From IMG/VR virus record IMGVR_UViG_3300045988_027065, positions 1 to 36,735 of that record: a DNA stretch of 36,735 bases; one strand, 5' to 3'. Both the position numbers and the translations under genes were made by a program. This DNA comes from a virus. This document shows positions 2,557 through 15,052 of this stretch, piece by piece (position 1 is the stretch's first letter; each line of letters opens with the position of its first letter). A model generated the notes under the pieces. The model saw only the letters and a list, made by a program, of their open reading frames with translations, was not told the origin of the DNA and searched no databases.

Positions 2557-2967
2557 ATGCCAGAAAACGAAACAGTTGGGCGGCGAATCAAGACTGTAAG
2601 GCAAGAAAAGGGAATGACCCAAGCCCAACTTGCAGATCACAAAGATGTTAAGGTGACGAAAAACTACATCTATCTGATCGAGAGTGGGAAAACAGCTCCA
2701 GCAGAAAAGTTAGTTAAAGATATCGCAAAAGCGTTTGGTGTATCGGCAACGTGGCTGCTGACCGGAGATGGTAATAAATACCCGCTCCCAGAGGACGAAA
2801 CCGCCGCGTATGTTGACCAGCTCTTGCATGATGCAGAAAACCCGCTATACGACATAATCCGGGCGATCATGAAAACGTACAGCGAGCTGGACGGAAACAG
2901 CCAGGCCGTGATCAGAAACACGGTTGAACAATTTCAGAAAAACCTAAAAAAAGAGGGTCGGGGTTAA
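2557..2967 (+). CDS. XRE-family HTH repressor (CI-like, no S24 peptidase domain), 136 aa
   Basis: VGRRIKTVRQEKGMTQAQLA...IYLIESGKTAP...IAKAFGVSATWLLTGDG is a classic XRE HTH. It sits at the divergent switch on the integrase strand. Confidence 0.8.
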   Translation: MPENETVGRRIKTVRQEKGMTQAQLADHKDVKVTKNYIYLIESGKTAPAEKLVKDIAKAFGVSATWLLTGDGNKYPLPEDETAAYVDQLLHDAENPLYDIIRAIMKTYSELDGNSQAVIRNTVEQFQKNLKKEGRG

Positions 2968-2980
2968 TCCCCGGCCCTCT
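2952..2980. terminator. 12-bp GC-rich hairpin shared by two convergent genes; the strong T-tract is on the minus-strand side
   Basis: AGAGGGTCGGGG-TTAAT-CCCCGGCCCTCT. On the minus strand it is followed by TTTTTTTAGGTTTTT. Both stop codons lie in the loop. Confidence 0.7.
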
Positions 2981-3080
2981 CTATATGTCGTTTTACCAGC
3001 GTGTATATCTGACTCAAAAATGTTAGGTCATTAACTTTCTGTATCATTCTAATGATCTCGTCTCGGTATTGCTGTTCCAT
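2964..3080 (-). CDS. Small helical peptide, 38 aa (MEQQYRDEIIRMIQKVNDLTFLSQIYTLVKRHIERAGD)
   Basis: Hand translation. RBS AGGAGA lies 5 nt before the ATG at 3080. It ends in the terminator loop and is below the ORF-track cutoff. Confidence 0.4.
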   Translation of the reverse strand: MEQQYRDEIIRMIQKVNDLTFLSQIYTLVKRHIERAGD

Positions 3081-3298
3081 ATGTATCTCCTATTCGTCTC
3101 GCTTTGCCGAGCAAAGCCCAAACTGGAAAATCCCGTCGGTTTTTTCGGCAAAATGCTCAACTACTCCAATTGGGGGACAGTTGATCTAGCTTGGATAGAT
3201 GCTTGTCTAAGCTCGGTTAAAAAATTCACCTAAGTCAAGCCTAGACAAGCTCTATTATTCTGTGCTTTCATTTTTTATCAATTTTTCCGTTTTTCCTC

Positions 3299-3327
3299 TT
3301 GCGCTCTCCCGTGATTTTTAGTAAAAT
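3299..3327 (+). promoter_or_regulatory. Putative promoter TTGCGC-17 nt-TAAAAT for the 3544-4722 pair
   Basis: Hexamers and spacing read directly, about 215 nt upstream of the ATG at 3544. Confidence 0.4.
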
Positions 3328-3543
3328 CATATTGTGATTGAGCCGTTGTAAAATGGTATGTGGGCTCCGTCTAAACTCTTCCGTTTCTAGCGGCGGGAGG
3401 TCTTCATGGCACTGCATCATCGTCCCCACCTCCTTGCGGTGCCTATGCTTAGATTATACCAGTCCATTTATTCCAATCAATACCATTTATGTGCTCATTT
3501 AGTGCTCTTTGACGTTCAAATTGCGCCAAATCTGGAAAGGTCG

Positions 3544-4062
3544 ATGGGAATGAGCCAGAATCAGTCTGAGCTGATACGGCAGCTCCAGCAAATGCGGATG
3601 GAGAAGGGGCTGACCTACCAGGCCATAGTAGACGCTTGCGAGATGGCAGGGGAGCCTGTGTCTATGTCCTCTGTCCGGCGGATTTTTTCCGATGATCCAG
3701 ACCGTCCGGAGGCTTTCCGGGTCACCACGCTCCAGGCTGTGGCTCGGGCCGTAATCGGTAATGCATACAACGCGGAAACAGTCCCGCCGTCTGATTTAGC
3801 GGCGCTCCGGGCCTTGCTAGCTGTCCGCGAGGAGACAGACAAGGATCGGCAGCAGGGGATCATAGACAGGACAGAGCAGATAGCCCGGATGCAGTCCACC
3901 ATAGATGAGCTACAAGCCGAGATCAAGCGGAAGTCTAAGACCATCAAAATCATGATCCTTTGGGCCTCTGTTATGACGATGCTGCTAATTGCGTTTTTTG
4001 TGGCCCTTGCGGTCTATGTTGTTTGGGATTTGTCGCACCCTGGGTGCGGGATATTAAGATAG
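3544..4062 (+). CDS. Membrane-anchored HTH-like protein: N-terminal HTH, coiled coil, C-terminal TM (172 aa; alternative start at 3406)
   Basis: LIRQLQQMRMEKGLTYQAIVDACEMAGEPVSMSSVRRIF is HTH-like. QSTIDELQAEIKRKSK looks like coiled coil. ILWASVMTMLLIAFFVALAVYVVW is hydrophobic. Confidence 0.6.
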   Translation: MGMSQNQSELIRQLQQMRMEKGLTYQAIVDACEMAGEPVSMSSVRRIFSDDPDRPEAFRVTTLQAVARAVIGNAYNAETVPPSDLAALRALLAVREETDKDRQQGIIDRTEQIARMQSTIDELQAEIKRKSKTIKIMILWASVMTMLLIAFFVALAVYVVWDLSHPGCGILR

Positions 4063-4074
4063 GAGGAGTTAAAA

Positions 4075-4722
4075 ATGGAGCAATTAGTTGGTACGCTGCT
4101 CCTGTTGTTCGTCTTTTCCGCTATCCTGATTGGGGCCCTGATGTGGCAAAAATCCGGCACAAAGCGGGCACAGAAAAAAGCGGAAGATCAAAATCGGCAG
4201 GATGAGACCCGGCAGAAGATCGCGGAGGCAGAGGCCGAGTGGAGGAAGCAGCCCCACTCTTGGGATGCTCCAGCGGCCCCGGAAAAGCCAAAGGAGGAGC
4301 CGAAAAAGGATGATGGCGTAACATTTAAGGCCACCGGGATGGCCTACCACATGGACGGTCTAGAAAAAATCGCCGCTGAAAACTGGGACTATGAGATGAC
4401 AAACGCGGAAATAAAAGAGGAGTATGAGCAGTACGACAGAATCTATAAGTACGAGTACCCGGTAGAGACCGTGGAGCTTGTTCCGGAGCCAGACAACGAG
4501 GCCGACCCAAACGCCATTGCTGTTCACATCAATGGAGAAAAGGTGGCCTATATTAAGAGAGGTAGCACCACCAGGGCCCGGAACCTCCTGGCAAGCGGAA
4601 ACAGAAAAATAACCGCTGAGGTGTACGGTGGGCCCTACAAAATGGTGGAGGAGGACGATGATGGCAGGTTGACCGTCATCAAAGGCGAGAGCCCCATCCG
4701 CGTTATTATCAAGATCAAATAA
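4075..4722 (+). CDS. Membrane-anchored HIRAN-domain protein: N-terminal TM, charged linker, C-terminal HIRAN (215 aa)
   Basis: RBS AGGAGG upstream. The TM is LVGTLLLLFVFSAILIGALMW, followed by KSGTKRAQKK. The HIRAN-like core is FKATGMAYH...VELVPEPDNEADPNAIAVHINGEKVAYIKR. Confidence 0.6.
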   Translation: MEQLVGTLLLLFVFSAILIGALMWQKSGTKRAQKKAEDQNRQDETRQKIAEAEAEWRKQPHSWDAPAAPEKPKEEPKKDDGVTFKATGMAYHMDGLEKIAAENWDYEMTNAEIKEEYEQYDRIYKYEYPVETVELVPEPDNEADPNAIAVHINGEKVAYIKRGSTTRARNLLASGNRKITAEVYGGPYKMVEEDDDGRLTVIKGESPIRVIIKIK

Positions 4723-4726
4723 AAAT

Positions 4727-4753
4727 GCCCCCGGTGTACCGAGCACCGAGGGC
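4727..4753 (+). terminator. Hairpin after the HIRAN gene (weak T-tract)
   Basis: GCCCCCGGTG-taccgag-CACCGAGGGC pairs at 9 of 10 positions and is followed by GTTTCGC. Confidence 0.4.
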
Positions 4754-4797
4754 GTTTCGCAAATTCGGGGAGATACAAATTGGAGAAATCCAGATTT

Positions 4798-4831
4798 GAG
4801 GAATCTGCGTATTTATTATAACAGATTCCTC
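4798..4831. promoter_or_regulatory. Perfect 10-bp inverted repeat GAGGAATCTG-14 nt-CAGATTCCTC upstream of int
   Basis: Read directly. The AT-rich spacer cgtatttattataa contains a -10-like TATAA. Confidence 0.45.
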
Positions 4832-4855
4832 CCGGAAACACAAGGGGAGAATCAT

Positions 4856-5962
4856 ATGCAATGCAGGAAATGCCATTCAGAAGCACCGGAGGGGGCTAAT
4901 TTCTGCCCAAAGTGCGGGGCCAAATTAACTGTAACCACAAGCGTAAAAAGCCGTGGAAACGGACAGGGGACGGCCATCAAGCGAGGGAAAACGTGGACAG
5001 CTATATGGTCTGCCCCGCGCTACATCGGCGAGGATGGGAAGGTACACTATCCACGGAAGTGGAAGGGCGGATTTGCCACAAAAAAAGCCGCCCTGGCGTA
5101 TGCGTCATGCCATCCGGAAACTGTCGTAAAAGTGCCTACACTCCGCGATTATCATAAAACATGGCACTCGGCTGCATTTACCAAGCTGGGAAAATCTAAG
5201 CAGACGGCCTATGAGATCGCTTGGAAGCGTTGGGACGGCCTGTACGACAAGCCCGTAACCGAGCTATCCATCGGAGATTTACAGGGGCAGGTGGACACTG
5301 AGACCTCCACATACTACCCAGCACGTGACATGAAAACTGTAGCGTCCCACCTTCTGAAAATGGCCGTTGCAGAGGGCCATCTCCGGGCAAATCTGGCGGA
5401 ATATATTGAGCTTCCGCCGCTGGATGAAAAAGAGATGACCCCGTACACCGAGGACGAGATTAAACTATTCTGGGCGGCATACACCGCCGGTGATACGTTT
5501 GTGGGCTACATCCTGCTGATGATCTACACTGGCATGATGCCCGGGGAGCTGTTTATCTTAAAAAAAGACATGATAGATTTTGAAAAGTTCGAGATACGTG
5601 GGGCTGGGCTCAAAACGAAAAAACGCAAGGAAACGTCCATGGTATTTCCGCAATCCATTGCCCCCGTGCTCCACAAACTCTGTGACTGCTCCAACAGCCG
5701 GAAAGATTACGTCCTCTGTATGGATCGTGACCGATTTTACCCGGAATATCACAGAGCTGTCAAGAGCGCCGGATGCAGAGACCTCCCGCCATACTCATGC
5801 CGCCACACTACCGCCACGGCGCTGGCTCTTGGTAATATTGCACCGTCCGTAATTCAGGAGGTTATGCGCCACACCAAATTTACAACAACACAGCGCTATA
5901 TCCATCCAGATACCGCCGCTTCTCATGCCGCCGTAAATCAGATGGCGGCAACGTCTGAGTAG
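4856..5962 (+). CDS. int: Tyrosine-recombinase integrase with an N-terminal zinc ribbon (368 aa from MQCRKC)
   Basis: RBS AAGGGGAG upstream. N-terminal CRKCHSEAPEGANFCPKCG. C-terminal SCRHTTATALAL...VMRHTKFTTTQRYIH is the HxxR...Y catalytic box. Confidence 0.85.
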   Translation: MQCRKCHSEAPEGANFCPKCGAKLTVTTSVKSRGNGQGTAIKRGKTWTAIWSAPRYIGEDGKVHYPRKWKGGFATKKAALAYASCHPETVVKVPTLRDYHKTWHSAAFTKLGKSKQTAYEIAWKRWDGLYDKPVTELSIGDLQGQVDTETSTYYPARDMKTVASHLLKMAVAEGHLRANLAEYIELPPLDEKEMTPYTEDEIKLFWAAYTAGDTFVGYILLMIYTGMMPGELFILKKDMIDFEKFEIRGAGLKTKKRKETSMVFPQSIAPVLHKLCDCSNSRKDYVLCMDRDRFYPEYHRAVKSAGCRDLPPYSCRHTTATALALGNIAPSVIQEVMRHTKFTTTQRYIHPDTAASHAAVNQMAATSE

Positions 5963-5967
5963 CATTG

Positions 5968-5987
5968 TTGTTAGCAAATCGTTAGCA
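5968..5987 (+). repeat. Putative integrase arm-type site (TTGTTAGCAAATCGTTAGCA), copy 1
   Basis: A near-identical direct copy is at 6219-6239. The two copies flank the tRNA-derived core. Confidence 0.45.
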
Positions 5988-6024
5988 TATCCCGAATTTT
6001 TCTTGTAATTGCAACGCATTTTAC

Positions 6025-6087
6025 GCCCCTGCTAAGGGAGTAGGCCGGGAAACCGGCGCGAGGGTTCAAATCCCTCCTTCCGCGCCA
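6025..6087 (+). other. attP core: 3' segment of tRNA-Ser(GCT), comprising anticodon loop, long variable arm, T arm, acceptor 3' strand and CCA
   Basis: CTGCTAA loop, GCCGGgaaaCCGGC variable arm, GAGGGTTCAAATCCCTC T arm, then CTTCCGCGCCA. No matching 5' acceptor strand (GCGGAAG) is present upstream. Confidence 0.7.
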
Positions 6088-6136
6088 AAAGTACCGCATT
6101 TGCACTTGAATTTGTGTAAATGCGGTACTTTTTTAC
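6087..6136. terminator. Rho-independent terminator after the tRNA fragment; also closes the minus-strand cassette
   Basis: AAAAGTACCGCATTT-loop-AAATGCGGTACTTTTTT. T/A tracts lie on both sides. Confidence 0.7.
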
Positions 6137-6218
6137 TGTATTTGTTTGAAAATCTGTGCTTTGAAAATCCACGAGGAATCATGCAGGATCATGCTGAATC
6201 AGGCAAAAATACAGTCTA

Positions 6219-6239
6219 TTGTTAGCGTAATCGTTAGCA
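6219..6239 (+). repeat. Putative integrase arm-type site (TTGTTAGCGTAATCGTTAGCA), copy 2
   Basis: Direct repeat of 5968-5987 with one substitution and one extra base. Confidence 0.45.
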
Positions 6240-6240
6240 C

Positions 6241-6717
6241 TTATCCCACGACAATCCCATGATAGTATGCTGCCAGCTTGGCTTCCGGCCCCGGGCCGTC
6301 CTTGTCAAACAAAAACGCCTTTGCGAGGTCGGCGTAAAACTCTACCTTGTTGCATCCGTGCTTTGTTGCCACGCTGCAATAGTCCGAGTACATCATATTC
6401 ATGGCGGCATTCCATCCATTCGGTGTAATGTGCTCCATTACTACCCCTGCGGTTTTTGCCGCGTCGGTGGTCTGGGCTACTGTCCAATGTCCACCGGTGC
6501 TACCATCATCGTTTTTCATGTTGGCATTCCATGTCTCCAATGCGTGATCGTCCAGCTTCTCACTATGGCATACACAATGTTCCATGTCATTGACGTGCTC
6601 CCAGCACTCGATCATAGCATCAACAGCGGCCATGGATCTAGTCCCGATTGGCTGATCGAGGTATTCCGCCAATTCGTGCTCCAACTTGGATTTATAATCG
6701 CTCAATTTGGATTTCAT
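6241..6717 (-). CDS. Hypothetical protein E of the moron cassette (158 aa)
   Basis: ATG at 6717 is preceded by GAGGTGA, 10 nt after the upstream stop. Motif NAAMNMMYSDYCSVATKHG...FYADLAKAFLFDKD. No family recognised. Confidence 0.6.
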   Translation of the reverse strand: MKSKLSDYKSKLEHELAEYLDQPIGTRSMAAVDAMIECWEHVNDMEHCVCHSEKLDDHALETWNANMKNDDGSTGGHWTVAQTTDAAKTAGVVMEHITPNGWNAAMNMMYSDYCSVATKHGCNKVEFYADLAKAFLFDKDGPGPEAKLAAYYHGIVVG

Positions 6718-6727
6718 GGCGATCACC

Positions 6728-7168
6728 TCACGCCAGCTTTACGGCGCTTGCGCATACATGGGAAACCGTGCCTGCTACACCGCCGAGCGTCGCGCTGATT
6801 GTTGGAGCGCCATTGCAGCACACTGGGACATATATTGTAGTCTCTGCGTGGAGCGTGTACACAGAGCCAGCGGCTACCGTTTCCTGCGCATTGAGGCAAG
6901 GGAGCGTTGCCGTGTCCTTGAGTCCCTGGAGCACCGCCACGCCAGCAGCTGACGGTGTGAAGGTCACGTCATAGGATACGCGGTAAAGTCCAGAGGCGTT
7001 GATCCGGAAGCCCCCTGTGACTGTATCCACAGAGCATCCGGTATCAGTGTTGAGCACGCCCAGCACGGATACTGGGGTGCCGGTGGCAACAAACGCCTGT
7101 GATGCGTCGTTATAAGCGTTCTGGGCGCTCTTATAGTGGGGATTTTTAAGATTTCTGTTGCAGCTCAT
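6728..7168 (-). CDS. BclA C-terminal-domain-like (C1q/TNF jelly-roll-like) protein without a collagen region (146 aa)
   Basis: The pattern GTPVSVLG...FRINASGLYRVSYDVTF...VAVLQGLKD...TLHAETTIYV...ISATLGG...ASAVKLA resembles exosporium BclA C-terminal domains. RBS AAAGGAGA upstream. Confidence 0.45.
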   Translation of the reverse strand: MSCNRNLKNPHYKSAQNAYNDASQAFVATGTPVSVLGVLNTDTGCSVDTVTGGFRINASGLYRVSYDVTFTPSAAGVAVLQGLKDTATLPCLNAQETVAAGSVYTLHAETTIYVPVCCNGAPTISATLGGVAGTVSHVCASAVKLA

Positions 7169-7188
7169 ATTGTTCTCCTTTCAGAAAT

Positions 7189-7212
7189 GCCCGGGGCAAA
7201 TCCGCCCCGGGC
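7189..7212 (-). terminator. GC-rich 9-bp hairpin between cassette genes C and D (weak T-tract; attenuator or stabiliser)
   Basis: On the minus strand: GCCCGGGGC-ggattt-GCCCCGGGC followed by ATTTCT. Confidence 0.4.
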
Positions 7213-7243
7213 TTATCGCTGTTAGAGCGGTTTTTGAACGTTG

Positions 7244-7879
7244 TTATGCGCACCCGCAGCCGCTATTGCAGCCGCAGAACGGGGAAGGCCCGGCGGTGTA
7301 AGTGTAGCCGTTGGGATAGCGAACCACACCATACATGCGGTTGTCAGCCTCCAGAGCAGAGACCTTATCCCGCAGGCTCTGGATCTCGTTTGCCTGCATC
7401 AGTGCCCTGGTCTGCTCACCCTCGGCGTGGATCGCCGTAGTGATGTCGCAGGTCTGTCGGTCAATTTGTGCGGACAGGTTTGCGGTGGCCAGTCGATTCT
7501 CGCAGCAGCACTGAGCAATCTGAGACTGGATGGCATTCCCAGTCTGCATGATTGTGGTGTTGGTGCCAGCCTGCGCCAGTGCGACCTCCTTGCCGAGCTG
7601 CCCGATATTGCCCTGCATCTCATACCCGAGGTTGCAGATTCCGTTGCCGAGATTTGTCAGCCGGTCATTGATCTGGCCAAACTGCTGTCCATAAAGGATC
7701 TCCTGCTGGGATGCCGCCGTGGCGTACTGTCCATACTCTCCCTGGCGGTTAAACCCACTCCAACCTCCGCCCATGATGACAAACAGAAACAGGATGATGA
7801 TCCACCATGCACCGTTGCCCGCCATTCCGTCAGCGTCCTTGGTTACAGCCGCGAGATCGGAAAGAGAATAGTTTTCCAC
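7244..7879 (-). CDS. Membrane protein C of the cassette: one TM, Q/N-rich helical repeats, CCC motif and Cys-rich tail FCGCNSGCGCA (211 aa)
   Basis: GTG start with AAGGAG 7 nt upstream. TM is WWIIILFLFVIMGGGW. Motifs IAQCCCENR and the C-terminal CGCNSGCGCA. Confidence 0.6.
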   Translation of the reverse strand: MENYSLSDLAAVTKDADGMAGNGAWWIIILFLFVIMGGGWSGFNRQGEYGQYATAASQQEILYGQQFGQINDRLTNLGNGICNLGYEMQGNIGQLGKEVALAQAGTNTTIMQTGNAIQSQIAQCCCENRLATANLSAQIDRQTCDITTAIHAEGEQTRALMQANEIQSLRDKVSALEADNRMYGVVRYPNGYTYTAGPSPFCGCNSGCGCA

Positions 7880-7925
7880 TGTATCACTCCTTTTGTAATT
7901 TATATAATCCCGTTGCGCACCGGGG

Positions 7926-8141
7926 TTATTTCAAAAATTTTGAAAATTCTTGCGCTTGCGCTTTGAGCTGATTAAATTGCTCCTGCGACATTTGCCCGGA
8001 GGCTAGGAGCTGCTCCACTTGCTTTCGCGCGCCGTCCGGCGTCATTCCCGCCGCAAACTCGCGAAATTTGGAGATCATAGCCATTGGATTATTTTGTTGG
8101 CTTTGGCTTTGCGGCAGAAACTGGTTCAGCGGATTTACCAT
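7926..8141 (-). CDS. Small Q-rich protein B (71 aa), start embedded in the 3' end of gene A
   Basis: ATG at 8141 with GGAGGA 8 nt upstream. 53-nt out-of-frame overlap with the upstream gene. Confidence 0.5.
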   Translation of the reverse strand: MVNPLNQFLPQSQSQQNNPMAMISKFREFAAGMTPDGARKQVEQLLASGQMSQEQFNQLKAQAQEFSKFLK

Positions 8142-8463
8142 TTACAATTTCCTCCAATCGTTTAATTCGGTTTTCTAAATCACCGACAGATGCCGTCTGT
8201 GCGTCCTGATGAGGAGCTATATCAAATGCTCTAACCGTTTTGTACCCGGCACCGTCAGTCTGACAGAGCCAAATCAGCGGGGCAGTATCATCCATCACGA
8301 TAGCACTGCTATTGGGAGCCATTTGGAGCGCCTGTGCTCCATTCTGGCCGTTGACATGGATCACCTCAGTCCTCTGCGGCTGTTGATTGTAGCCGCCATA
8401 TTGATTCCCATATCCTGTATAGCCGCCATATTGATTGCCATATGGCATATATCCATAGGCCAT
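8089..8463 (-). CDS. Protein A: Gly/Tyr/Asn/Gln low-complexity N-terminus, globular core, C-terminal coiled coil (124 aa)
   Basis: AGGAGGTGA lies 5 nt before the ATG at 8463. The N-terminus is MAYGYMPYGNQYGGYTGYGNQYGGYNQQPQ. Confidence 0.65.
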   Translation of the reverse strand: MAYGYMPYGNQYGGYTGYGNQYGGYNQQPQRTEVIHVNGQNGAQALQMAPNSSAIVMDDTAPLIWLCQTDGAGYKTVRAFDIAPHQDAQTASVGDLENRIKRLEEIVNGKSAEPVSAAKPKPTK

Positions 8464-8558
8464 ATTACTCACCTCCTGATTTAATGTTAGCACGTATATC
8501 TGCCAGCTGGAATGCGCATATATTGCTCAAAAAATATTCAAAAAATCTTGAAAAAAGC

Positions 8559-8587
8559 TTGACATACCGCCCGATGGGCGTTATAAT
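8559..8587 (+). promoter_or_regulatory. Perfect consensus sigma-70-type promoter TTGACA-17 nt-TATAAT
   Basis: Read directly: -35 at 8559-8564 and -10 at 8582-8587. The spacer contains the small palindrome CGCCCgatGGGCG. Confidence 0.75.
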
Positions 8588-8618
8588 ATAGACAGTTAAT
8601 AACAAGGGGGAACCAAAA

Positions 8619-8966
8619 ATGGAAGAGCTGGTTTTGAATGCGCTGATCGAGAACAACAACAAATACTGTGTATATGGCCTCCGCACGGATGACCGTGTAC
8701 TCAAAGTTGGGGACGAGCTCGGGTGCTCCCGTGATCTGTACTGGGAAAACACCGAAGAAACCTATCTCTCAGGCACCTGCGCTACCGGCTTTGGATACCT
8801 CTGGTACGATGAGGATGACATTGATGAGGTGCGCAAGGCGCTGGCGCGTCAGCAGGACTATGACGGCGCACACATGTACCTGATCGCCGGTGATGACAGC
8901 GAGTACGGCAACGACCCGGCTGAGATCATCATCCGCAACGCCGTGGTGGTTACAGCGATCAGATAA
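8619..8966 (+). CDS. Acidic hypothetical protein (115 aa), first gene of the plus-strand moron
   Basis: RBS GGGGGA upstream. No recognisable motif. Confidence 0.6.
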   Translation: MEELVLNALIENNNKYCVYGLRTDDRVLKVGDELGCSRDLYWENTEETYLSGTCATGFGYLWYDEDDIDEVRKALARQQDYDGAHMYLIAGDDSEYGNDPAEIIIRNAVVVTAIR

Positions 8967-9019
8967 TACAGCGGGCATCTGATGGAGTGAGAATAATGTA
9001 GACTAAGGAGGTCAAAAAA

Positions 9020-9310
9020 ATGAAAACAATCTCAATTTATTACAACACTGGCAACATCGGCAGCGCCAACATGGCGTATCTCCGCTGCATGGACGGTGTG
9101 TGGCAGTGGATTCCGGCACCGTCTCCCAGCGTGTTGGGTGCCAGCGCTGATGATCGGCGTGCATGGGCTACCAATCCTGATTATCCCAAACTCAGCGCAG
9201 ATGTCGCCCAGCGCCTTGCTACAACGCCTGTGGATCAGTACACATACCAGATGATTTTCGGTATTCCGGGCGATGATCCAGAATACCGGTGGATGACATT
9301 AAAAAATTGA
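9020..9310 (+). CDS. Hypothetical protein (96 aa)
   Basis: Strong RBS TAAGGAGGT upstream. The stop is 1 nt before the next start. Confidence 0.6.
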   Translation: MKTISIYYNTGNIGSANMAYLRCMDGVWQWIPAPSPSVLGASADDRRAWATNPDYPKLSADVAQRLATTPVDQYTYQMIFGIPGDDPEYRWMTLKN

Positions 9311-9311
9311 G

Positions 9312-9536
9312 GTGACAAAAATGACACCAGCCGAACAGGTCAAATCCATCCGGGCCAGCACCGGCCTGTCTCAGGTTAAATTTGCCGCAGCGTTTGGAAT
9401 CTATCCACGCACACTGCAAAAATGGGAGGGCGGTGAGCGGAACCCGCCGCCATATGTAATCAACCTCCTGCGGATCGCTGTGGAATACACGATGCCGAAC
9501 ACCAATCTCACCGATCTCGCAGACGATCATGGCTGA
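9312..9536 (+). CDS. Small XRE/MqsA-HigA-like HTH protein (74 aa)
   Basis: IRASTGLSQVKFAAAFGIYPRTLQKWEGGERNPPPYVINLLRI matches the antitoxin-type HTH pattern. RBS GAGGTGA upstream. Confidence 0.65.
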   Translation: MTKMTPAEQVKSIRASTGLSQVKFAAAFGIYPRTLQKWEGGERNPPPYVINLLRIAVEYTMPNTNLTDLADDHG

Positions 9537-9656: not shown

Positions 9657-9722
9657 AACACCCCCACCTTTTGATATGTACCCAGTATTGGGGGTACATA
9701 TCATTTCGGTGGGGGTGTTTTT
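9657..9722. terminator. Large nested bidirectional terminator between convergent units
   Basis: AACACCCCCACC...GATATGTACCC-loop-GGGTACATATC...GGTGGGGGTGTT, with T-tracts on both strands. Confidence 0.75.
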
Positions 9723-9723
9723 G

Positions 9724-9921
9724 CTAAACCCTATCTATTTTCCGCTTTACCTTGCCGGAAATACGCCGGATGCCGCCCATAGAATAATCCAGTTCCCCGC
9801 AGCAATCCTCTAATGTAGCGCCGCTGGCTCTCAGATCAAAAAACGCCATTTCAGTGTCTGTAAAATTACATAAACTTCTAAATCTATCTAATTCCGGCTT
9901 TGTGTAGTCTTTGATCTGCAT
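9724..9921 (-). CDS. Small sigma-70 region-4/LuxR-like HTH protein (65 aa from MQIKDY)
   Basis: ATG at 9921 is preceded by GGGGGT. FTDTEMAFFDLRASGATLEDCCGELDYSMGGIRRISGKVKRKI resembles region-4 HTH. It is the last gene before the terminator. Confidence 0.45.
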   Translation of the reverse strand: MQIKDYTKPELDRFRSLCNFTDTEMAFFDLRASGATLEDCCGELDYSMGGIRRISGKVKRKIDRV

Positions 9922-9933
9922 TTTTACCCCCAA

Positions 9934-10959: not shown

Positions 10960-11223
10960 TCAATCCTCCTTTTTGGCCTGCTTAGCAATCTGATTTACGC
11001 CCGTAGCCGCAAAGCCAGACACAGCGCCGATCGCCGCCGCCGTGATAGGATCGTCCGCCGGGAAATCCGGCATGATGTACAGAGCCACGATGCCAAGCAC
11101 CAGACCAGCAATTCCGCAGATAACCGGGATCCACTTGTTAGCCAGACCAGAGGATTTAACACCCTGCCCGATGAGATAGGCGAGTACGGTGATAGCCGCA
11201 ACGCCAGCAATGCCAAAATCCAT
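10960..11223 (-). CDS. Holin (87 aa, multi-TM)
   Basis: MDFGIAGVAAITVLAYLIG...KWIPVICGIAGLVLGIVALYI...AAAIGAVSGFAATG with a charged tail KQAKKED. It lies directly upstream of the endolysin. Confidence 0.75.
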   Translation of the reverse strand: MDFGIAGVAAITVLAYLIGQGVKSSGLANKWIPVICGIAGLVLGIVALYIMPDFPADDPITAAAIGAVSGFAATGVNQIAKQAKKED

Positions 11224-11236
11224 GATTACGCCCTCC

Positions 11237-11476
11237 TTAATCGTCGTGTTTTTCTGCATCTTCTAAATCCTTGATTCGGTGGTTAATCACCTTGATTTGT
11301 TCCTCCACCACCGGAACGCGCCGTGCGAAATTGTTGTGTTCCCTAACCTCACGGGTCAGCTCGTCAATTTTCGTCTCCGTGACCGCCTGACTTTTGCCGT
11401 TTGAAATCAGAATGCCAACCAGAGTGACACCGCCGGTGATAACCGCCGTGATAACCGCGCTTAAAACGTCGCTCAA
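11237..11476 (-). CDS. XhlA-like lysis-associated membrane protein (79 aa, TTG start)
   Basis: N-terminal TM VITAVITGGVTLVGILI followed by coiled coil. RBS AAGGAGG lies 7 nt before the TTG. The position matches PBSX xhlA. Confidence 0.45.
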   Translation of the reverse strand: MSDVLSAVITAVITGGVTLVGILISNGKSQAVTETKIDELTREVREHNNFARRVPVVEEQIKVINHRIKDLEDAEKHDD

Positions 11477-11914: not shown

Positions 11915-13336
11915 TTACACGCCGCAGGCGTAGATATAGATGTCCGTTGAGATGCTGGCCGTGCTGGTAGTGGTCACAAATGCCATGTAGGCATTTGCAA
12001 TCGTGTCCGCCCCGGAGGCCGGGGTGGACGGAATCGCCCAAATTGGCTTGTTGTTCACACTGCGCACCCCCACATACATGGTGGGTTTCTCGGTAAAATT
12101 CACCGGATAGGGATAGGGCACAGTGGATGAGTAGTACAGGCTGCCGCTGGCCTGTTTTATCTCATGCTGGAGCGTCGTCCGGAGCCAGCACTCCTTTTTC
12201 CCGTCGTTCCAAATGCGATACCGCCACGCCCCGGAGGTGCCCTCCTGCGCAACGTAGGATGCCGGTGCCGGGCGCTCATCCCATGCATACCACTGGCTGT
12301 TGGTGTAGCACCGGGTGGCCACATAGCCGCTGCCCGTGTTGAAGCTCACGAAGGTCTGATAGATCACGTTGCTTGTTGGGCTTGTGGTGACAATCAGCAT
12401 GCCGGTGCCGCCGTTGGGGGTGTTGGTCACCGTGGTCTTGTTCAGCCAGTACAGCCCAGCGCCTGTGTAGTCATTGATGTTCGCGGACGAACCGGACACC
12501 ATCTGATCCAGCGGGGAGGCCGGGCTGATCTCCACCCATTTCTCGCTCCACTTCCCCGTGGCGGCGTAGTAGGTGCGCAGCCACCGGCGGCCCAGCACCG
12601 GCTCGTATTCCTCCAGCTCCACGGTGATGTGCTCGCTGCCGGTGGGATTTCTGACCGGGTACACCGTCCGCCGGGCCCAGAAGCCCCCGGAGGTCACGGG
12701 GCTGTTCGTCAGGGTAGAGGCGTCCTCGGTCATGATGGTGGCGGGCTGGTTCTTCTCCGCCGTCAGGGTGTTGCCCTCCCCGGTGGCAATGGCGAGGACG
12801 TTGGTGGAAACCCCGGTGTCGTAGCGCCGCCATGCCCCGTAGGGAATCAGCCAGCGCTTGTAGGCGTCCGCCTCGGCGGCGCTGGCGGCGGCGGCATTGG
12901 CACTGGTGGCGGCGTTGGAGGCGGCAGTCTGGGCGGCGTTTTTAAGCTGCTGGAAGCTGCTGAAAACCGTTTCGGACAGGTCGGGATTCTCCGGCAGCGC
13001 CGAAGGCTCCACCACCAGAAGGAAGGTGGCGGAGCCTAAAATGGTGCCGGATTTGGTAACGGTCAGCTGACAGCGAACGTCCCCGGCCACGGCGGCCATC
13101 TGCTCCGTCACCGTAAAGCTGACGCCGGTGCCGGAGAAGCTGGCGGTGGAGGAGAAGCTCTTGCCGTCGGGCTTGGTGCCCTCCACGGTGACGGCCGACC
13201 CGGCGGGCACCGAAAAGGCGCCGGAGCCGTTCCACAGGGTCATGGTGATGGTGCGGCTGCCCTTGTCAAACTGCCGCACCGGCACTCGCAGGGGATTGCC
13301 CCCGGGGATCATGTTCAGGGAATAGGTTTGGTTCAT
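11915..13336 (-). CDS. Receptor-binding / tail fibre protein with a BppU-like N-terminal domain (473 aa)
   Basis: N-terminus LNMIPGGNPLRVPVRQFDKGSRTITMTLWNG...VRCQLTVT is BppU_N-like. An Ala-rich coiled coil is followed by a roughly 300-aa C-terminal head. Confidence 0.7.
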   Translation of the reverse strand: MNQTYSLNMIPGGNPLRVPVRQFDKGSRTITMTLWNGSGAFSVPAGSAVTVEGTKPDGKSFSSTASFSGTGVSFTVTEQMAAVAGDVRCQLTVTKSGTILGSATFLLVVEPSALPENPDLSETVFSSFQQLKNAAQTAASNAATSANAAAASAAEADAYKRWLIPYGAWRRYDTGVSTNVLAIATGEGNTLTAEKNQPATIMTEDASTLTNSPVTSGGFWARRTVYPVRNPTGSEHITVELEEYEPVLGRRWLRTYYAATGKWSEKWVEISPASPLDQMVSGSSANINDYTGAGLYWLNKTTVTNTPNGGTGMLIVTTSPTSNVIYQTFVSFNTGSGYVATRCYTNSQWYAWDERPAPASYVAQEGTSGAWRYRIWNDGKKECWLRTTLQHEIKQASGSLYYSSTVPYPYPVNFTEKPTMYVGVRSVNNKPIWAIPSTPASGADTIANAYMAFVTTTSTASISTDIYIYACGV

Positions 13337-13351
13337 TGCTGTACCTCCATA

Positions 13352-15052
13352 TCAGGTAATGTTTGTCCATTCATCGCCCTCGCTGCCTCTCCGGAACAGC
13401 CGCCCGGTGATATACACCCCGGCGCCCTTGTCCCCGGAGGAGGTGATGAGCACGCTTCCGGCCTTGCCCGTGAGCTTCGCCACCCCGGTTTTTGTGACGT
13501 AAACGCTGTAGTCCCCGGCCTGAAGCCGGATGCCGGAGCCTGTGGCAATGGCATAGCAGTCCCCGGAGGCGTTGCCCACGCCGATGCCGCTGGTGGTGCC
13601 GGATTCCGTGGCGCCGGTCATATAGCCAAGGTAGCCGCTGAGGGTGCCGTCCGGGCTGTCATAGGAGGAAATGGTGCCGGAGGTGGAAAACTCCCCGGTC
13701 TCCATGTTCCAGAAGTTCTTCCCCCGGTCATCGGTGAGCACCCCGGCCTTGATAAGCCCGGCGTTCAGGGTGCCCACGGTGATCCGGTCGGCCACAATGG
13801 CCCCGTCCTTGGTGATGGCCAGTGAAAAGGGGCCGTTATAGCCGGTATCGGAGTGCCCAAGGCCCCCCTCGTTCCAGCGCCAGAGGCTCCGGGCGGTGGC
13901 AAGATCCTCGGAATCCGACAGAATGCAAAGCTCTATGGGCTTGCCGTCCTCATCCTGCACAAGTACTACACGTCCACCGTGGCTTCCGGCTATCAGCTGC
14001 GTTGCATTCTGGATGGCCGCATCTCGCTTTGCATTAAAATCACTGTTGGGGTTTTGGATTTCGTCTTTCAGACCGGAAATCGTGTTGATTGAGTTCCTCG
14101 GGATACTGTTCACCGCTACGGTATTGTTTTCCGGGTGATATGGATGGATTTCCTCCTCCGCAATCAGTGCTGTGATAGTGCTGCCGTTGTATGCCACCCG
14201 CACCCGCTGGTATAACTCCACCTTGTGATCGCTCCAGCGCTGCGGATCACTGCGGTACAGGTCAAACAGCGATACCTCCCAAGATACCTCCGGCGTGGCC
14301 AGAGAGTCCAACAGAGCCTGTGCGGCGCTTCTGAGGCTTATGGAGTTTTCATACCGTTCATCCTTCCACACCTTGCAGATGATCTTGTCTGTATAGTGGA
14401 GATTTTCCACATAGTCCCTTCCACCGTTGATGTGCCCAATGGTCAAACCGTTCGCTCCTATGGGGTACACTCTGGTGACCAGGTCAGTAGATTTCCCTGT
14501 GCGGCTTGGACGCCGACGCATGGCTGCGCTTTCGGTGAGCAACGTCCCGCTGATCGGATTCGCTTGCGGATAGTACACCGTGCAGATGTGTCGCCCTGTG
14601 TCAAAGCGCATGGCACATCCGTAGCTGTCCTGCGCAGTAAGTGCAATGTCCAGCGGGGTACCACCTGCATCCAGCAGTACACTCCGTCTCTGGGTGTCCA
14701 TGGTTTCATAGACCATGCTCCAGCCGCTGGGCACTACCTGCTGCATGGTCACAGGCAGGCTGGATGTGTTGTTGTAGTAGTAGAAGACAGCGGTAGATTG
14801 CCATGCTTCCAGATTCAGCTGGCAGTCCACGTCTGCGGTACTGCTGCCGGCATCAATGCCCTTGATGACGTAGGTCTGTTCCTCGGTTGTCTCATAGATA
14901 TAGGCCTCTTCCGCTAGCTGGGGGAACGCAGGATCATCCAGATAGAGTTCAAAATGCAGTGTATCTATGCCATTCCATTTATGTGTAACGGCATAATTGT
15001 TTCCTACATCGTGGATTGGGACATTCCCCTCAGCTGTAATCAGTTCAAGCAT
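13352..15052 (-). CDS. Tail-associated protein Tal (prophage-tail/endopeptidase-tail family), 566 aa
   Basis: N-terminus MLELITAEGNVPIH...HKWNGIDTLHFELY. It follows Dit. Confidence 0.7.
   Translation of the reverse strand: MLELITAEGNVPIHDVGNNYAVTHKWNGIDTLHFELYLDDPAFPQLAEEAYIYETTEEQTYVIKGIDAGSSTADVDCQLNLEAWQSTAVFYYYNNTSSLPVTMQQVVPSGWSMVYETMDTQRRSVLLDAGGTPLDIALTAQDSYGCAMRFDTGRHICTVYYPQANPISGTLLTESAAMRRRPSRTGKSTDLVTRVYPIGANGLTIGHINGGRDYVENLHYTDKIICKVWKDERYENSISLRSAAQALLDSLATPEVSWEVSLFDLYRSDPQRWSDHKVELYQRVRVAYNGSTITALIAEEEIHPYHPENNTVAVNSIPRNSINTISGLKDEIQNPNSDFNAKRDAAIQNATQLIAGSHGGRVVLVQDEDGKPIELCILSDSEDLATARSLWRWNEGGLGHSDTGYNGPFSLAITKDGAIVADRITVGTLNAGLIKAGVLTDDRGKNFWNMETGEFSTSGTISSYDSPDGTLSGYLGYMTGATESGTTSGIGVGNASGDCYAIATGSGIRLQAGDYSVYVTKTGVAKLTGKAGSVLITSSGDKGAGVYITGRLFRRGSEGDEWTNIT

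Follow-up and report, generated by a model that had tools for sequence, protein, structure and literature searches.

The stretch of viral DNA analysed here (the window) is the 36,735-nucleotide IMG/VR record IMGVR_UViG_3300045988_027065. Its minus strand carries, at 6241-8493, five tightly packed open reading frames (ORFs), which together we refer to as the cassette. These genes, named A to E, had been proposed in a previous model-made reading of the letters alone (hereafter the sequence-only reading), and all five ORFs are present: independent gene calls on 8 metagenome contigs recovered products of 124, 71, 211, 146 and 158 residues identically. The counts of homologues (homologue clusters of 334 for A, 3600 for C and 101 for D), together with the score of E against the Pfam family DUF7841, indicate that the five ORFs are more than chance. 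They are arranged as follows:

Gene A, 8089-8463, minus strand: 124 residues, phrog_21718
Gene B, 7926-8141, minus strand: 71 residues, phrog_22984
Gene C, 7244-7879, minus strand: 211 residues, GTG start behind AAGGAG, phrog_16490
Gene D, 6728-7168, minus strand: 146 residues, predicted stand-alone C1q/TNF-type jelly roll
Gene E, 6241-6717, minus strand: 158 residues, DUF7841 protein

For gene E, the ATG at 6717, giving 158 residues, is the most likely start, rather than the GTG at 6726. The Pfam, PHROG, NCBIfam and PADLOC profile libraries assign no function to any of the five proteins. By profile score, C, A and B are members of PHROGs 16490, 21718 and 22984, respectively, and E of DUF7841, all of them families without an assigned function. 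Profile searches of NCBIfam and PADLOC with the five proteins returned nothing except chance-level coiled-coil matches, and sequence searches of the PDB with A, C, D and E gave chance or coiled-coil matches only, none of them significant. No account of any cassette member was found in a literature search on BclA-like phage genes, DUF7841 and phage C3_41T2LP.

The product of gene A begins MAYGYMPYGNQYGGYTGYGNQYGGYNQQPQ, with Y, G, N or Q making up 80% of residues 1-30. This Tyr/Gly/Asn/Gln-rich, disordered N-terminus is followed by a conserved core of ~55 residues (VNGxNGA...TDGAGY), a short coiled coil and a Lys/Pro-rich tail; across 38 sequences the N-terminus is variable low-complexity sequence and the TDGAGY core motif is invariant. 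B contains 13 Gln in 71 residues, with a Gln/Met/Asn/Pro-rich N-terminus and a helical C-terminus. It starts at 8141, so that its first 53 nt lie within the 3' end of A, and is preceded by a ribosome-binding site (RBS) of its own, GGAGGA at 8155-8150; in related loci B always stands immediately upstream of C. An A-B fusion produced by programmed frameshifting was rejected, as the overlap ranges from 4 to ~60 nt across lineages and B has its own RBS. Inspection revealed no signal peptide in A, B, D or E.

C comprises an acidic N-terminal peptide, one transmembrane segment (hydrophobic residues ~24-40), a long helical or coiled-coil region with CCC at 124-126, and a Cys-rich tail, FCGCNSGCGCA. 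The features listed in the sequence-only reading for A (Tyr/Gly-rich), B (Gln-rich, GGAGGA) and C (transmembrane segment, CCC, tail) are thus all present. In the family the tail is conserved as GVVRYPxGYTYxAGPSPFCGCxxGCGC, and its GVVRYPxGYTYxAGPSPFCGC portion is nearly constant, whichever protein comes next. Among 49 diverse family members, the CCC motif occurs in 41, and 45 carry two or more Cys in the final 15 residues; the N-terminal flank averages 3.5 Asp/Glu versus 0.6 Lys/Arg, and a conserved Asn-Arg lies just after the membrane segment. This charge pattern around the segment suggests that the N-terminus lies outside and the bulk of the protein is cytoplasmic. The family consists of ~900 representatives at 50% identity, all of them stand-alone proteins of 170-250 residues. 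The AlphaFold model of C is of low confidence (predicted local distance difference test, pLDDT, 53), with helices at 6-14, 24-35, 60-105 and 110-182 and an unstructured tail, and is too poor for a fold search.

Several established roles were considered for C and rejected. A holin is contradicted by the lack of any holin-family match in Pfam, PHROG or NCBIfam and by a canonical Hol44-type holin encoded elsewhere in the window. A spanin likewise finds no family match, no lipobox-bearing ORF lies within or adjoining C, and the choline-binding repeats of the endolysin, a Gram-positive cell-wall feature, point to a Gram-positive host. A precursor of a ribosomally synthesized and post-translationally modified peptide, of the kind with six cysteines in forty-five residues, is at odds with the setting of the Cys-rich tail, which follows a 180-residue conserved protein and has no maturase gene nearby. 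As for known defence systems, no PADLOC model was matched by the five proteins, the only hits being chance-level coiled-coil matches to ZorA (E-value 0.037, and E-value 0.0019 at 16.5 bits versus a cut-off of 190).

For D, AlphaFold returned a confident all-beta model (pLDDT 90; predicted template-modelling score 0.82; 38-sequence alignment). In Foldseek searches of the PDB, the top ranks were held by BxpB/ExsFA and the C-terminal domain of BclA, exosporium proteins of the Bacillus cereus group (probability 1.0, E-values 3e-8 to 5e-7, template-modelling (TM) scores 0.65-0.77). The BclA-type structures 1wck, 2z5w and 3tyj matched with E-values of 5e-8 to 5e-7 and TM scores of 0.69-0.75, and the BxpB/ExsFA structures 8d02, 7r1m, 7r5i and 9h3d with E-values of 3e-8 to 1e-6 and TM scores up to 0.77. 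Next came C1q-like and TNF-family proteins, together with knobs of phage fibres or needles. Among predicted viral structures, the first matches were stand-alone proteins of 130-150 residues from gut phage metagenomes, followed by the distal domains of collagen-repeat tail fibres. The model and these matches bear out the proposal that D has a BclA/C1q-type fold without collagen repeats.

These structural matches also bear on the role proposed in the sequence-only reading, namely lysogenic conversion: expressed from the prophage, the cassette would furnish the spore coat, exosporium or cell surface of the host with Tyr-rich, Cys-rich and BclA/ExsFA-like proteins. Besides the jelly-roll fold shared with both exosporium proteins, D resembles BxpB/ExsFA in being a stand-alone domain of ~150 residues with a short N-terminal extension, which in D is a conserved stretch of ~20 residues (MSCN..KSAQNAYN). 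A is Tyr/Gly-rich, C and D are Cys-rich, and coat and exosporium proteins likewise have no signal peptides. At the level of sequence, however, D scores only 22.8 bits (E-value 9.2e-5) against Pfam BclA_C (PF18573), below the curated threshold of 38 bits, although this label is precomputed on some close D homologues, and 16.1 bits (E-value 0.014) against Pfam C1q (PF00386), below the threshold of 23.7 bits. Identity over the structural alignments is 13-18% (15-18% versus BxpB/ExsFA), and a PDB profile search with D gave no significant match, so that sequence homology to ExsFA is not detectable. The D sequence contains no collagen-like Gly-X-Y repeats, and the collagen-like region and N-terminal exosporium-targeting motif that define the BclA glycoprotein are not found in it; D also differs from the exosporium proteins in being encoded by phages and in having partner genes that occur in phages of non-sporulating hosts as well. 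On the predicted model, D is a C1q/TNF fold by structure and not a family member by sequence, and represents a new stand-alone member of that fold. The resemblance of the cassette products to spore proteins is one of fold and composition rather than family membership, and a 'BclA protein' label on a phage gene does not imply spore biology. The exact D protein of the window is indexed in 504 blocks of a public assembly collection. The possibility that D is the missing head of a collagen-like tail fibre was rejected, the fibre genes at 11915-15052 being free of collagen repeats.

E, which the sequence-only reading had left as unknown, can be placed in a family: it scores 73.3 bits against DUF7841 (PF25223; cut-off 25.2). 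Its RBS overlaps the stop codon of D, which indicates that D and E are translationally coupled. Matches to E at 1e-8 to 1e-11 were obtained by tblastn in a dozen crAss-like genomes, among which gp22 of cr52_1 scores 145.7 bits against DUF7841 (Pfam E-value 8.6e-43), and at least 10 records have an E-like gene immediately preceding a C-like gene. In many relatives (among them L014 6160-6468, L043 6139-6477 and L094 7103-7402) E is replaced by a ~100-residue helical protein with an EExxH motif. A weak similarity to rubrerythrin (19.8 bits versus a cut-off of 22.8) suggests that this replacement may be a ferritin-like or di-iron helper, and, taken with the Cys-rich C tail, may point to a chemistry based on metals or redox. 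In distant lineages, proteins at the end of the cassette or beside it carry mixed-charge tails rich in Arg, Asp, Glu and Tyr (for example DRDYDRDYDRE), a third low-complexity type besides those of A and B:

L102, 6320-6880
L101, 4132-4731 (C-terminal part)
L100, 6798-7031
L098, 5168-5518
L096, 5395-6174

Comparison across ~180 loci shows that A-B-C-D is a conserved unit, in agreement with the proposal that the gene order is kept. No homologue proved to be a known virion protein. All 80 IMG/VR loci found with C (64-100% identity) contain B-C and nearly all contain A. Transitive clustering of neighbouring ORFs gives a constant order of A, B, C and then a D-family member of 132-164 residues, followed by either E or the ~100-residue helical protein; the fuller conserved order reads (GerE/sigma-region-4-like gene) - A - B - C - hairpin - small beta-rich protein - helical protein. 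A scan with a 33%-identical C yielded more than 600 further IMG/VR matches, representing a distinct 45-kb phage lineage. The same architecture is found in the Clostridium perfringens (C. perfringens) phages HMD-PC1, vB_CpeS-17DYC and vB_CpeP_PMQ04 and in Dulem virus 36, where it comprises a protein whose N-terminus is rich in Tyr, Gly and Asn, a small protein rich in Met, Gln and Asn, a C-type protein with transmembrane segment, CCC and Cys tail, and a small beta-rich protein starting MSC or MPC. When A and B were compared by pairwise BLAST with their counterparts from C. perfringens phages, no match was obtained. The link for A runs through its architecture and through the counterpart in Dulem virus 36, which matches phrog_21718, the same PHROG as A, and clusters with the C. 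perfringens proteins; the link for B consists of architecture and position only.

Outside the phages of Bacillota, C-type proteins with the same membrane segment and a QCCCE motif occur in crAss-like phages (that of cr273_1 matches phrog_16490 at 4e-34), in Bacteroides phage C3_41T2LP and in the N4-like Vibrio cholerae phage 12VC501, which carries C alone. In crAss-like and Bacteroides phages too, the gene after C encodes a small beta-rich protein, although the homology of this protein to D is not demonstrable. Comparison by hhalign of D with the positional replacements in C. perfringens phages, the L099 lineage and crAss-like phages detected no homology, and we therefore call these replacements positional analogues only. 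C is the hallmark protein of the system; in phages of different bacterial phyla it is accompanied by a DUF7841 gene and by a small beta-rich protein. The hosts of the Bacteroides, crAss-like and Vibrio phages are non-sporulating, and crAss-like phages are not classical temperate phages. A restriction to phages of spore-forming hosts, as expected of a spore-layer module, is contradicted by the C-like and DUF7841 genes of crAss-like phages and C3_41T2LP and by the lone C of 12VC501, and the presence of the core in gut phages of non-sporulating bacteria makes a spore-coat role unlikely. Annotated genes in two of the crAss-like loci, L101 (cr52_1) at 2859-6748 and L098 (cr273_1) at 3893-6102, contain in-frame stops under translation table 11, which fit the stop-codon recoding known in some crAss-like phages. 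In cr52_1, a reverse-transcriptase gene stands beside a tail-protein gene just upstream, a locus that looks like a diversity-generating retroelement.

The position of the cassette varies among genomes (attP denotes the phage attachment site):

After the lysis genes, at the attP-proximal end: the window and L185
Between a head-morphogenesis gene and scaffold/capsid genes: the L102 lineage
Immediately behind the gene for the receptor-binding protein: Dulem virus 36
Among antirepressor, Gam and recombinase genes: C. perfringens phages
Among recombination genes: C3_41T2LP
Inside the structural block, beside two small membrane proteins: cr52_1

In the lineages compared, the cassette always has the same orientation as its neighbours. 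Lysis-type genes adjoin it in L093, L094 and L099, a holin and an endolysin gene lie near it in the window, and BhlA/XhlA-like membrane proteins are encoded inside or beside it in several lineages. The proposed neighbourhood of attP and cassette thus holds in the window, with its partial tRNA-Ser and integrase gene, and fails as a general rule, other lineages placing the cassette elsewhere.

The elements that bound, subdivide and possibly control the cassette are the following:

Putative extended -10 box TGCTAACAT with no -35 box, 8484-8492, minus strand
Small hairpin CGCUCUAACAGCG in the C-D spacer, 7217-7229, minus strand, by fold inspection
GC-rich hairpin of 10-12 bp just before the D RBS, 7189-7212, minus strand, free energy (dG) -25 kcal/mol, z -4.3
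Bidirectional hairpin terminator closing the cassette, 6087-6136, both strands, dG -25 and -29 kcal/mol, z -7 and -8, T-runs on both sides
Strong bidirectional terminator, 9657-9722, dG -46 kcal/mol, z -8
Gene for a sigma-region-4/GerE-like protein of 69 residues, 9724-9933, minus strand, right after the endolysin gene

The three hairpins at 6087-6136, 7189-7212 and 9657-9722 are far more stable than shuffled controls, and the first of them also closes the tRNA gene that integration would restore. The two terminators named in the sequence-only reading as bounding elements are therefore confirmed, and the divergent promoter that it had placed at 8464-8560 lies just beyond, at 8559-8587. A TAnnnT-type -10 hexamer occurs 12-45 nt before the start of gene A in 63 of 82 distinct loci, versus 21.8 +/- 3.9 in shuffles. 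It lacks a -35 box, often abuts a terminator-like hairpin and T-run, and by inspection looks more like the housekeeping -10 type than a sigma-E/sigma-K box, a likeness that would count against a spore-layer role. Taken together, the terminators at the flanks and this putative promoter uphold the view of the cassette as an autonomous transcription unit. A/T-rich direct repeats lie upstream of the putative -10 box at ~8500-8545 (in the window, TTTTTCAAGAT / TTTTTGAATAT / TTTTTGAGCAATAT). Such repeats are group-specific, with GGCGTAGAT present three times in L021 and GACCAAACGAT twice in L085, and they look like putative activator binding sites. A GerE/sigma-region-4-like gene is found directly upstream of A in several lineages, as well as in the relative L010, and for this reason the product of 9724-9933 is the likely cassette regulator; the L022 member matches Pfam GerE at 1.5e-11, and the window copy has no Pfam match of its own.

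Within the operon, the spacer between C and D (7169-7243, minus strand) forms a two-hairpin element, in which a hairpin of 4-5 bp precedes a GC-rich hairpin of 10-12 bp with a U-run. The hairpin at 7189-7212, described earlier as separating A-C from D-E, is real, and its weak U-tract (CAUUUCU) makes it at most a partial terminator in the window. In 59 of 65 distinct loci the sequence after C forms a GC-rich hairpin with 8 or more bp just before the next RBS, as compared with such a hairpin in 22 of 495 random windows; 31 different stem octamers and compensatory stem changes are seen among these loci. By inspection of 62 distinct spacers, the small hairpin has an equivalent in most related loci, its stem sequence differing by group, and the two-hairpin element is kept through compensatory changes from Oscillospiraceae phages to C. 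perfringens phages (~60 related loci). No Rfam family matches the hairpins. The simplest reading is that the C-D hairpin acts as an attenuator that would keep the downstream genes below the level of A, B and C.

We tentatively favour the explanation that the cassette is a mobile, self-regulated accessory operon of tailed phages, whose products would form a membrane-tethered intracellular complex with a role at the envelope. Our confidence in this architecture is moderate, and our confidence in superinfection exclusion or control of lysis and egress as its function is low. The envelope role is favoured by the membrane anchor, by the autonomy and mobility of the cassette, by the rapid exchange of the protein after C and by the frequent holin, endolysin and BhlA/XhlA-like neighbours, and 'uncharacterised envelope system', the broader alternative offered by the sequence-only reading, is still a fair description. 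In the proposed mechanism, an activator-dependent, -10-only promoter would fire, with the GerE-like protein as candidate activator. A, B and C would be made in excess, the conserved hairpin passing only some transcripts into D and E. C would sit in the cytoplasmic membrane, exposing its short acidic N-terminus on the outer side and keeping its ~170-residue coiled coil and Cys-rich tail within the cell. D, probably a trimer like other C1q/TNF domains, would dock on the C stalk through its conserved N-terminal peptide, and Cys or metal links may be involved. The low-complexity A and B and the helical E would then join the complex as partners or chaperones.

Known phage proteins offer partial parallels. 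BhlA/XhlA, the i-spanin Rz, T4 holin T and phi29 p16.7 all place a membrane helix at the N-terminus ahead of a long helical domain, which in Rz bears functional cysteines, and they are often encoded near lysis genes. C resembles them in its N-terminal membrane helix and long helical domain. It differs from BhlA/XhlA, Rz and holin T in matching no holin or spanin family, with the Hol44-type holin encoded elsewhere in the window, and from Rz in that most cassette hosts are Gram-positive, where spanins have no role, and in having no lipoprotein partner. Among morons and exclusion genes, suitable comparisons are lambda bor and lom, HK97 gp15, Lactococcus Sie2009 and S. thermophilus Ltp. The cassette shares with them its own promoter-like element and terminator (the terminators identified by folding, the promoter putative and based on enrichment of the -10-like box), a prophage-end site, a membrane protein and a variable position. 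In contrast to these genes, it has five or six members rather than one, it is found in crAss-like and N4-like phages as well, and most of its products look cytoplasmic. Its base composition does not deviate from that of the phage, as a moron's would: G+C across 6-8 kb is 0.515-0.544, and most other intervals of the window range from 0.49 to 0.58, with extremes of 0.45 and 0.64. The cassette as a system matches no characterised phage module tested, whether holin, spanin, known defence system or exosporium protein, and the linkage of PHROGs 16490, 21718 and 22984 and DUF7841 into one operon with a putative attenuator is not recorded in the libraries and literature searched.

Several points weigh against an envelope-directed accessory operon. 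A canonical holin is already present at 10960-11259, and terminators set the cassette apart, whereas lysis genes normally lie in the late operon. Folds of the D type are typical of virion fibre tips, and on the crAss side the coiled coil of a partner protein matches phrog_473, a 'virion structural protein'. None of the five proteins is matched by a PADLOC model. With C modelled at a pLDDT of 53, its oligomeric state and topology are predictions only. To our knowledge, exclusion proteins are single proteins, and it would be unusual to find five proteins, low-complexity partners among them, acting as a cytoplasmic complex.

Some of these points lead to the main rival explanation, in which the cassette encodes a two-part virion fibre: C would be a trimeric coiled-coil shaft, D an exchangeable receptor-binding knob attached through the Cys-rich tail, and A and B assembly chaperones; the cassette would then be a late structural addition, for instance a head fibre or a side fibre. 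The fold of D is that of phage fibre tips and knobs (PRD1 P5, the Sf6 and HS1 tail-needle knobs, cyanophage fibre domains, collagen-repeat tail fibres), and the beta-rich protein after C is swapped between lineages, as with receptor-binding modules; D differs from these fibre domains in not being fused to a shaft or anchor and in being encoded outside the tail block in the window phage. Homologues of C in crAss-like phages are annotated 'spike protein' or 'viral fibre', the cassette sits within structural blocks in cr52_1, Dulem virus 36 and the L102 lineage, and the phrog_473 match of the partner coiled coil and the absence of signal peptides from cassette proteins fit a fibre as well. In C, however, Trp residues flank a strongly hydrophobic stretch of ~17 residues, as is typical of a membrane helix, and particles of tailed phages rarely contain integral membrane proteins. 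The C. perfringens phages and C3_41T2LP have the cassette among early and recombination genes, and in the window it is separated from the late operon by terminators and an opposite-strand insert. The putative attenuator would also make D less abundant than C, whereas a shaft-knob pair needs equal amounts. On this balance we consider a virion fibre unlikely.

The stalk-and-head arrangement can also be taken in another direction. The cassette might encode a phylum-spanning phage machine in which a C stalk, Cys-crosslinked or metal-bound, bears D as an exchangeable head, C1q/TNF-like or another beta-sandwich, with A and B as chaperones and the DUF7841 or ferritin-like protein as helper. This would be a phage counterpart of BclA-ExsFA anchoring and a new means of superinfection exclusion or egress control, the C-D hairpin setting the ratio of stalk to head. 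We regard this more elaborate form as improbable.

A third possibility is that C anchors the low-complexity A and B, together with the Arg/Asp/Tyr-rich-tail proteins of relatives, on the inside of the membrane as a scaffold or condensate, on which phage DNA would be replicated or particles assembled. Phage phi29 offers a precedent in its protein p16.7. C does unite a membrane segment and a coiled coil, prion-like or mixed-charge low-complexity regions are found in A, in B and in the last-gene products of several lineages, and the cassette stands among replication and recombination genes in the C. perfringens phages and C3_41T2LP. Such a scaffold would leave no role for the variable C1q-like protein, no DNA-binding or replication domain was detected with Pfam and NCBIfam, and in most lineages the cassette adjoins lysis or tail genes, all of which makes this explanation very unlikely.

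Least likely of all is the spore-layer or surface-remodelling module of the sequence-only reading, which can draw on the exosporium-like fold of D, the accompanying GerE-type regulator gene, the rubrerythrin-like gene of some relatives (recalling CotJC) and the prophage-end location with its own promoter-like element and terminator, and which is opposed by the occurrence of the core genes in Bacteroidota phages and of C alone in a Vibrio phage, by the sequence distance of D from BclA and ExsFA, by the cassette G+C equalling that of the rest of the phage, and by the lack of any spore-protein name or domain on homologues of A, B or C.

No member of the cassette families has a known function, though they are shared by phages of Clostridia and crAss-like phages, the latter among the most abundant human-gut viruses. 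With its candidate regulator, putative attenuator, membrane anchor and swappable C1q-like module, the cassette offers a well-defined target for experiments, and solving it would assign a function to several PHROG and DUF families and might reveal a new phage action at the host membrane.

The genes and sites flanking the cassette in the window are as follows:

Tyrosine integrase gene, 4796-5962
3' part of a tRNA-Ser gene, attP core, ~6024-6088, plus strand, 94-97% identity to tRNA-Ser genes
Divergent sigma-70 promoter TTGACA-17-TATAAT, 8559-8587, plus strand, consensus at 12/12 positions
Gene for a GH25 endolysin with choline-binding repeats, 9934-10956
Gene for a Hol44-type holin, 10960-11259, 71.7 bits

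No complete tRNA gene was found at the attP region, and the partial tRNA-Ser beside the integrase gene fits an attP core. In locus L185 the phage genes end with E, and host genes follow. A large serine recombinase gene (L186 4008-5342) occupies the place of the tyrosine integrase gene beside an identical cassette; here the integration module was exchanged while the adjoining cassette stayed the same.

The divergent promoter at 8559-8587 drives the plus-strand genes at 8619-9536, outside the cassette. The three-gene unit at 8559-9536 encodes a 115-residue protein (phrog_18666), a 96-residue protein and a 74-residue XRE/MqsA-like helix-turn-helix protein, and could be a toxin-antitoxin or regulatory module. 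It is absent from the relative L010 and therefore looks like an insertion between the regulator gene and the cassette. Further downstream, G+C rises to 0.63-0.64 at 12001-14000, versus ~0.53 elsewhere, over a region that spans the tail-fibre/receptor-binding genes at 11915-13336 and the beginning of 13352-15052, which suggests that a host-range module was exchanged there recently.

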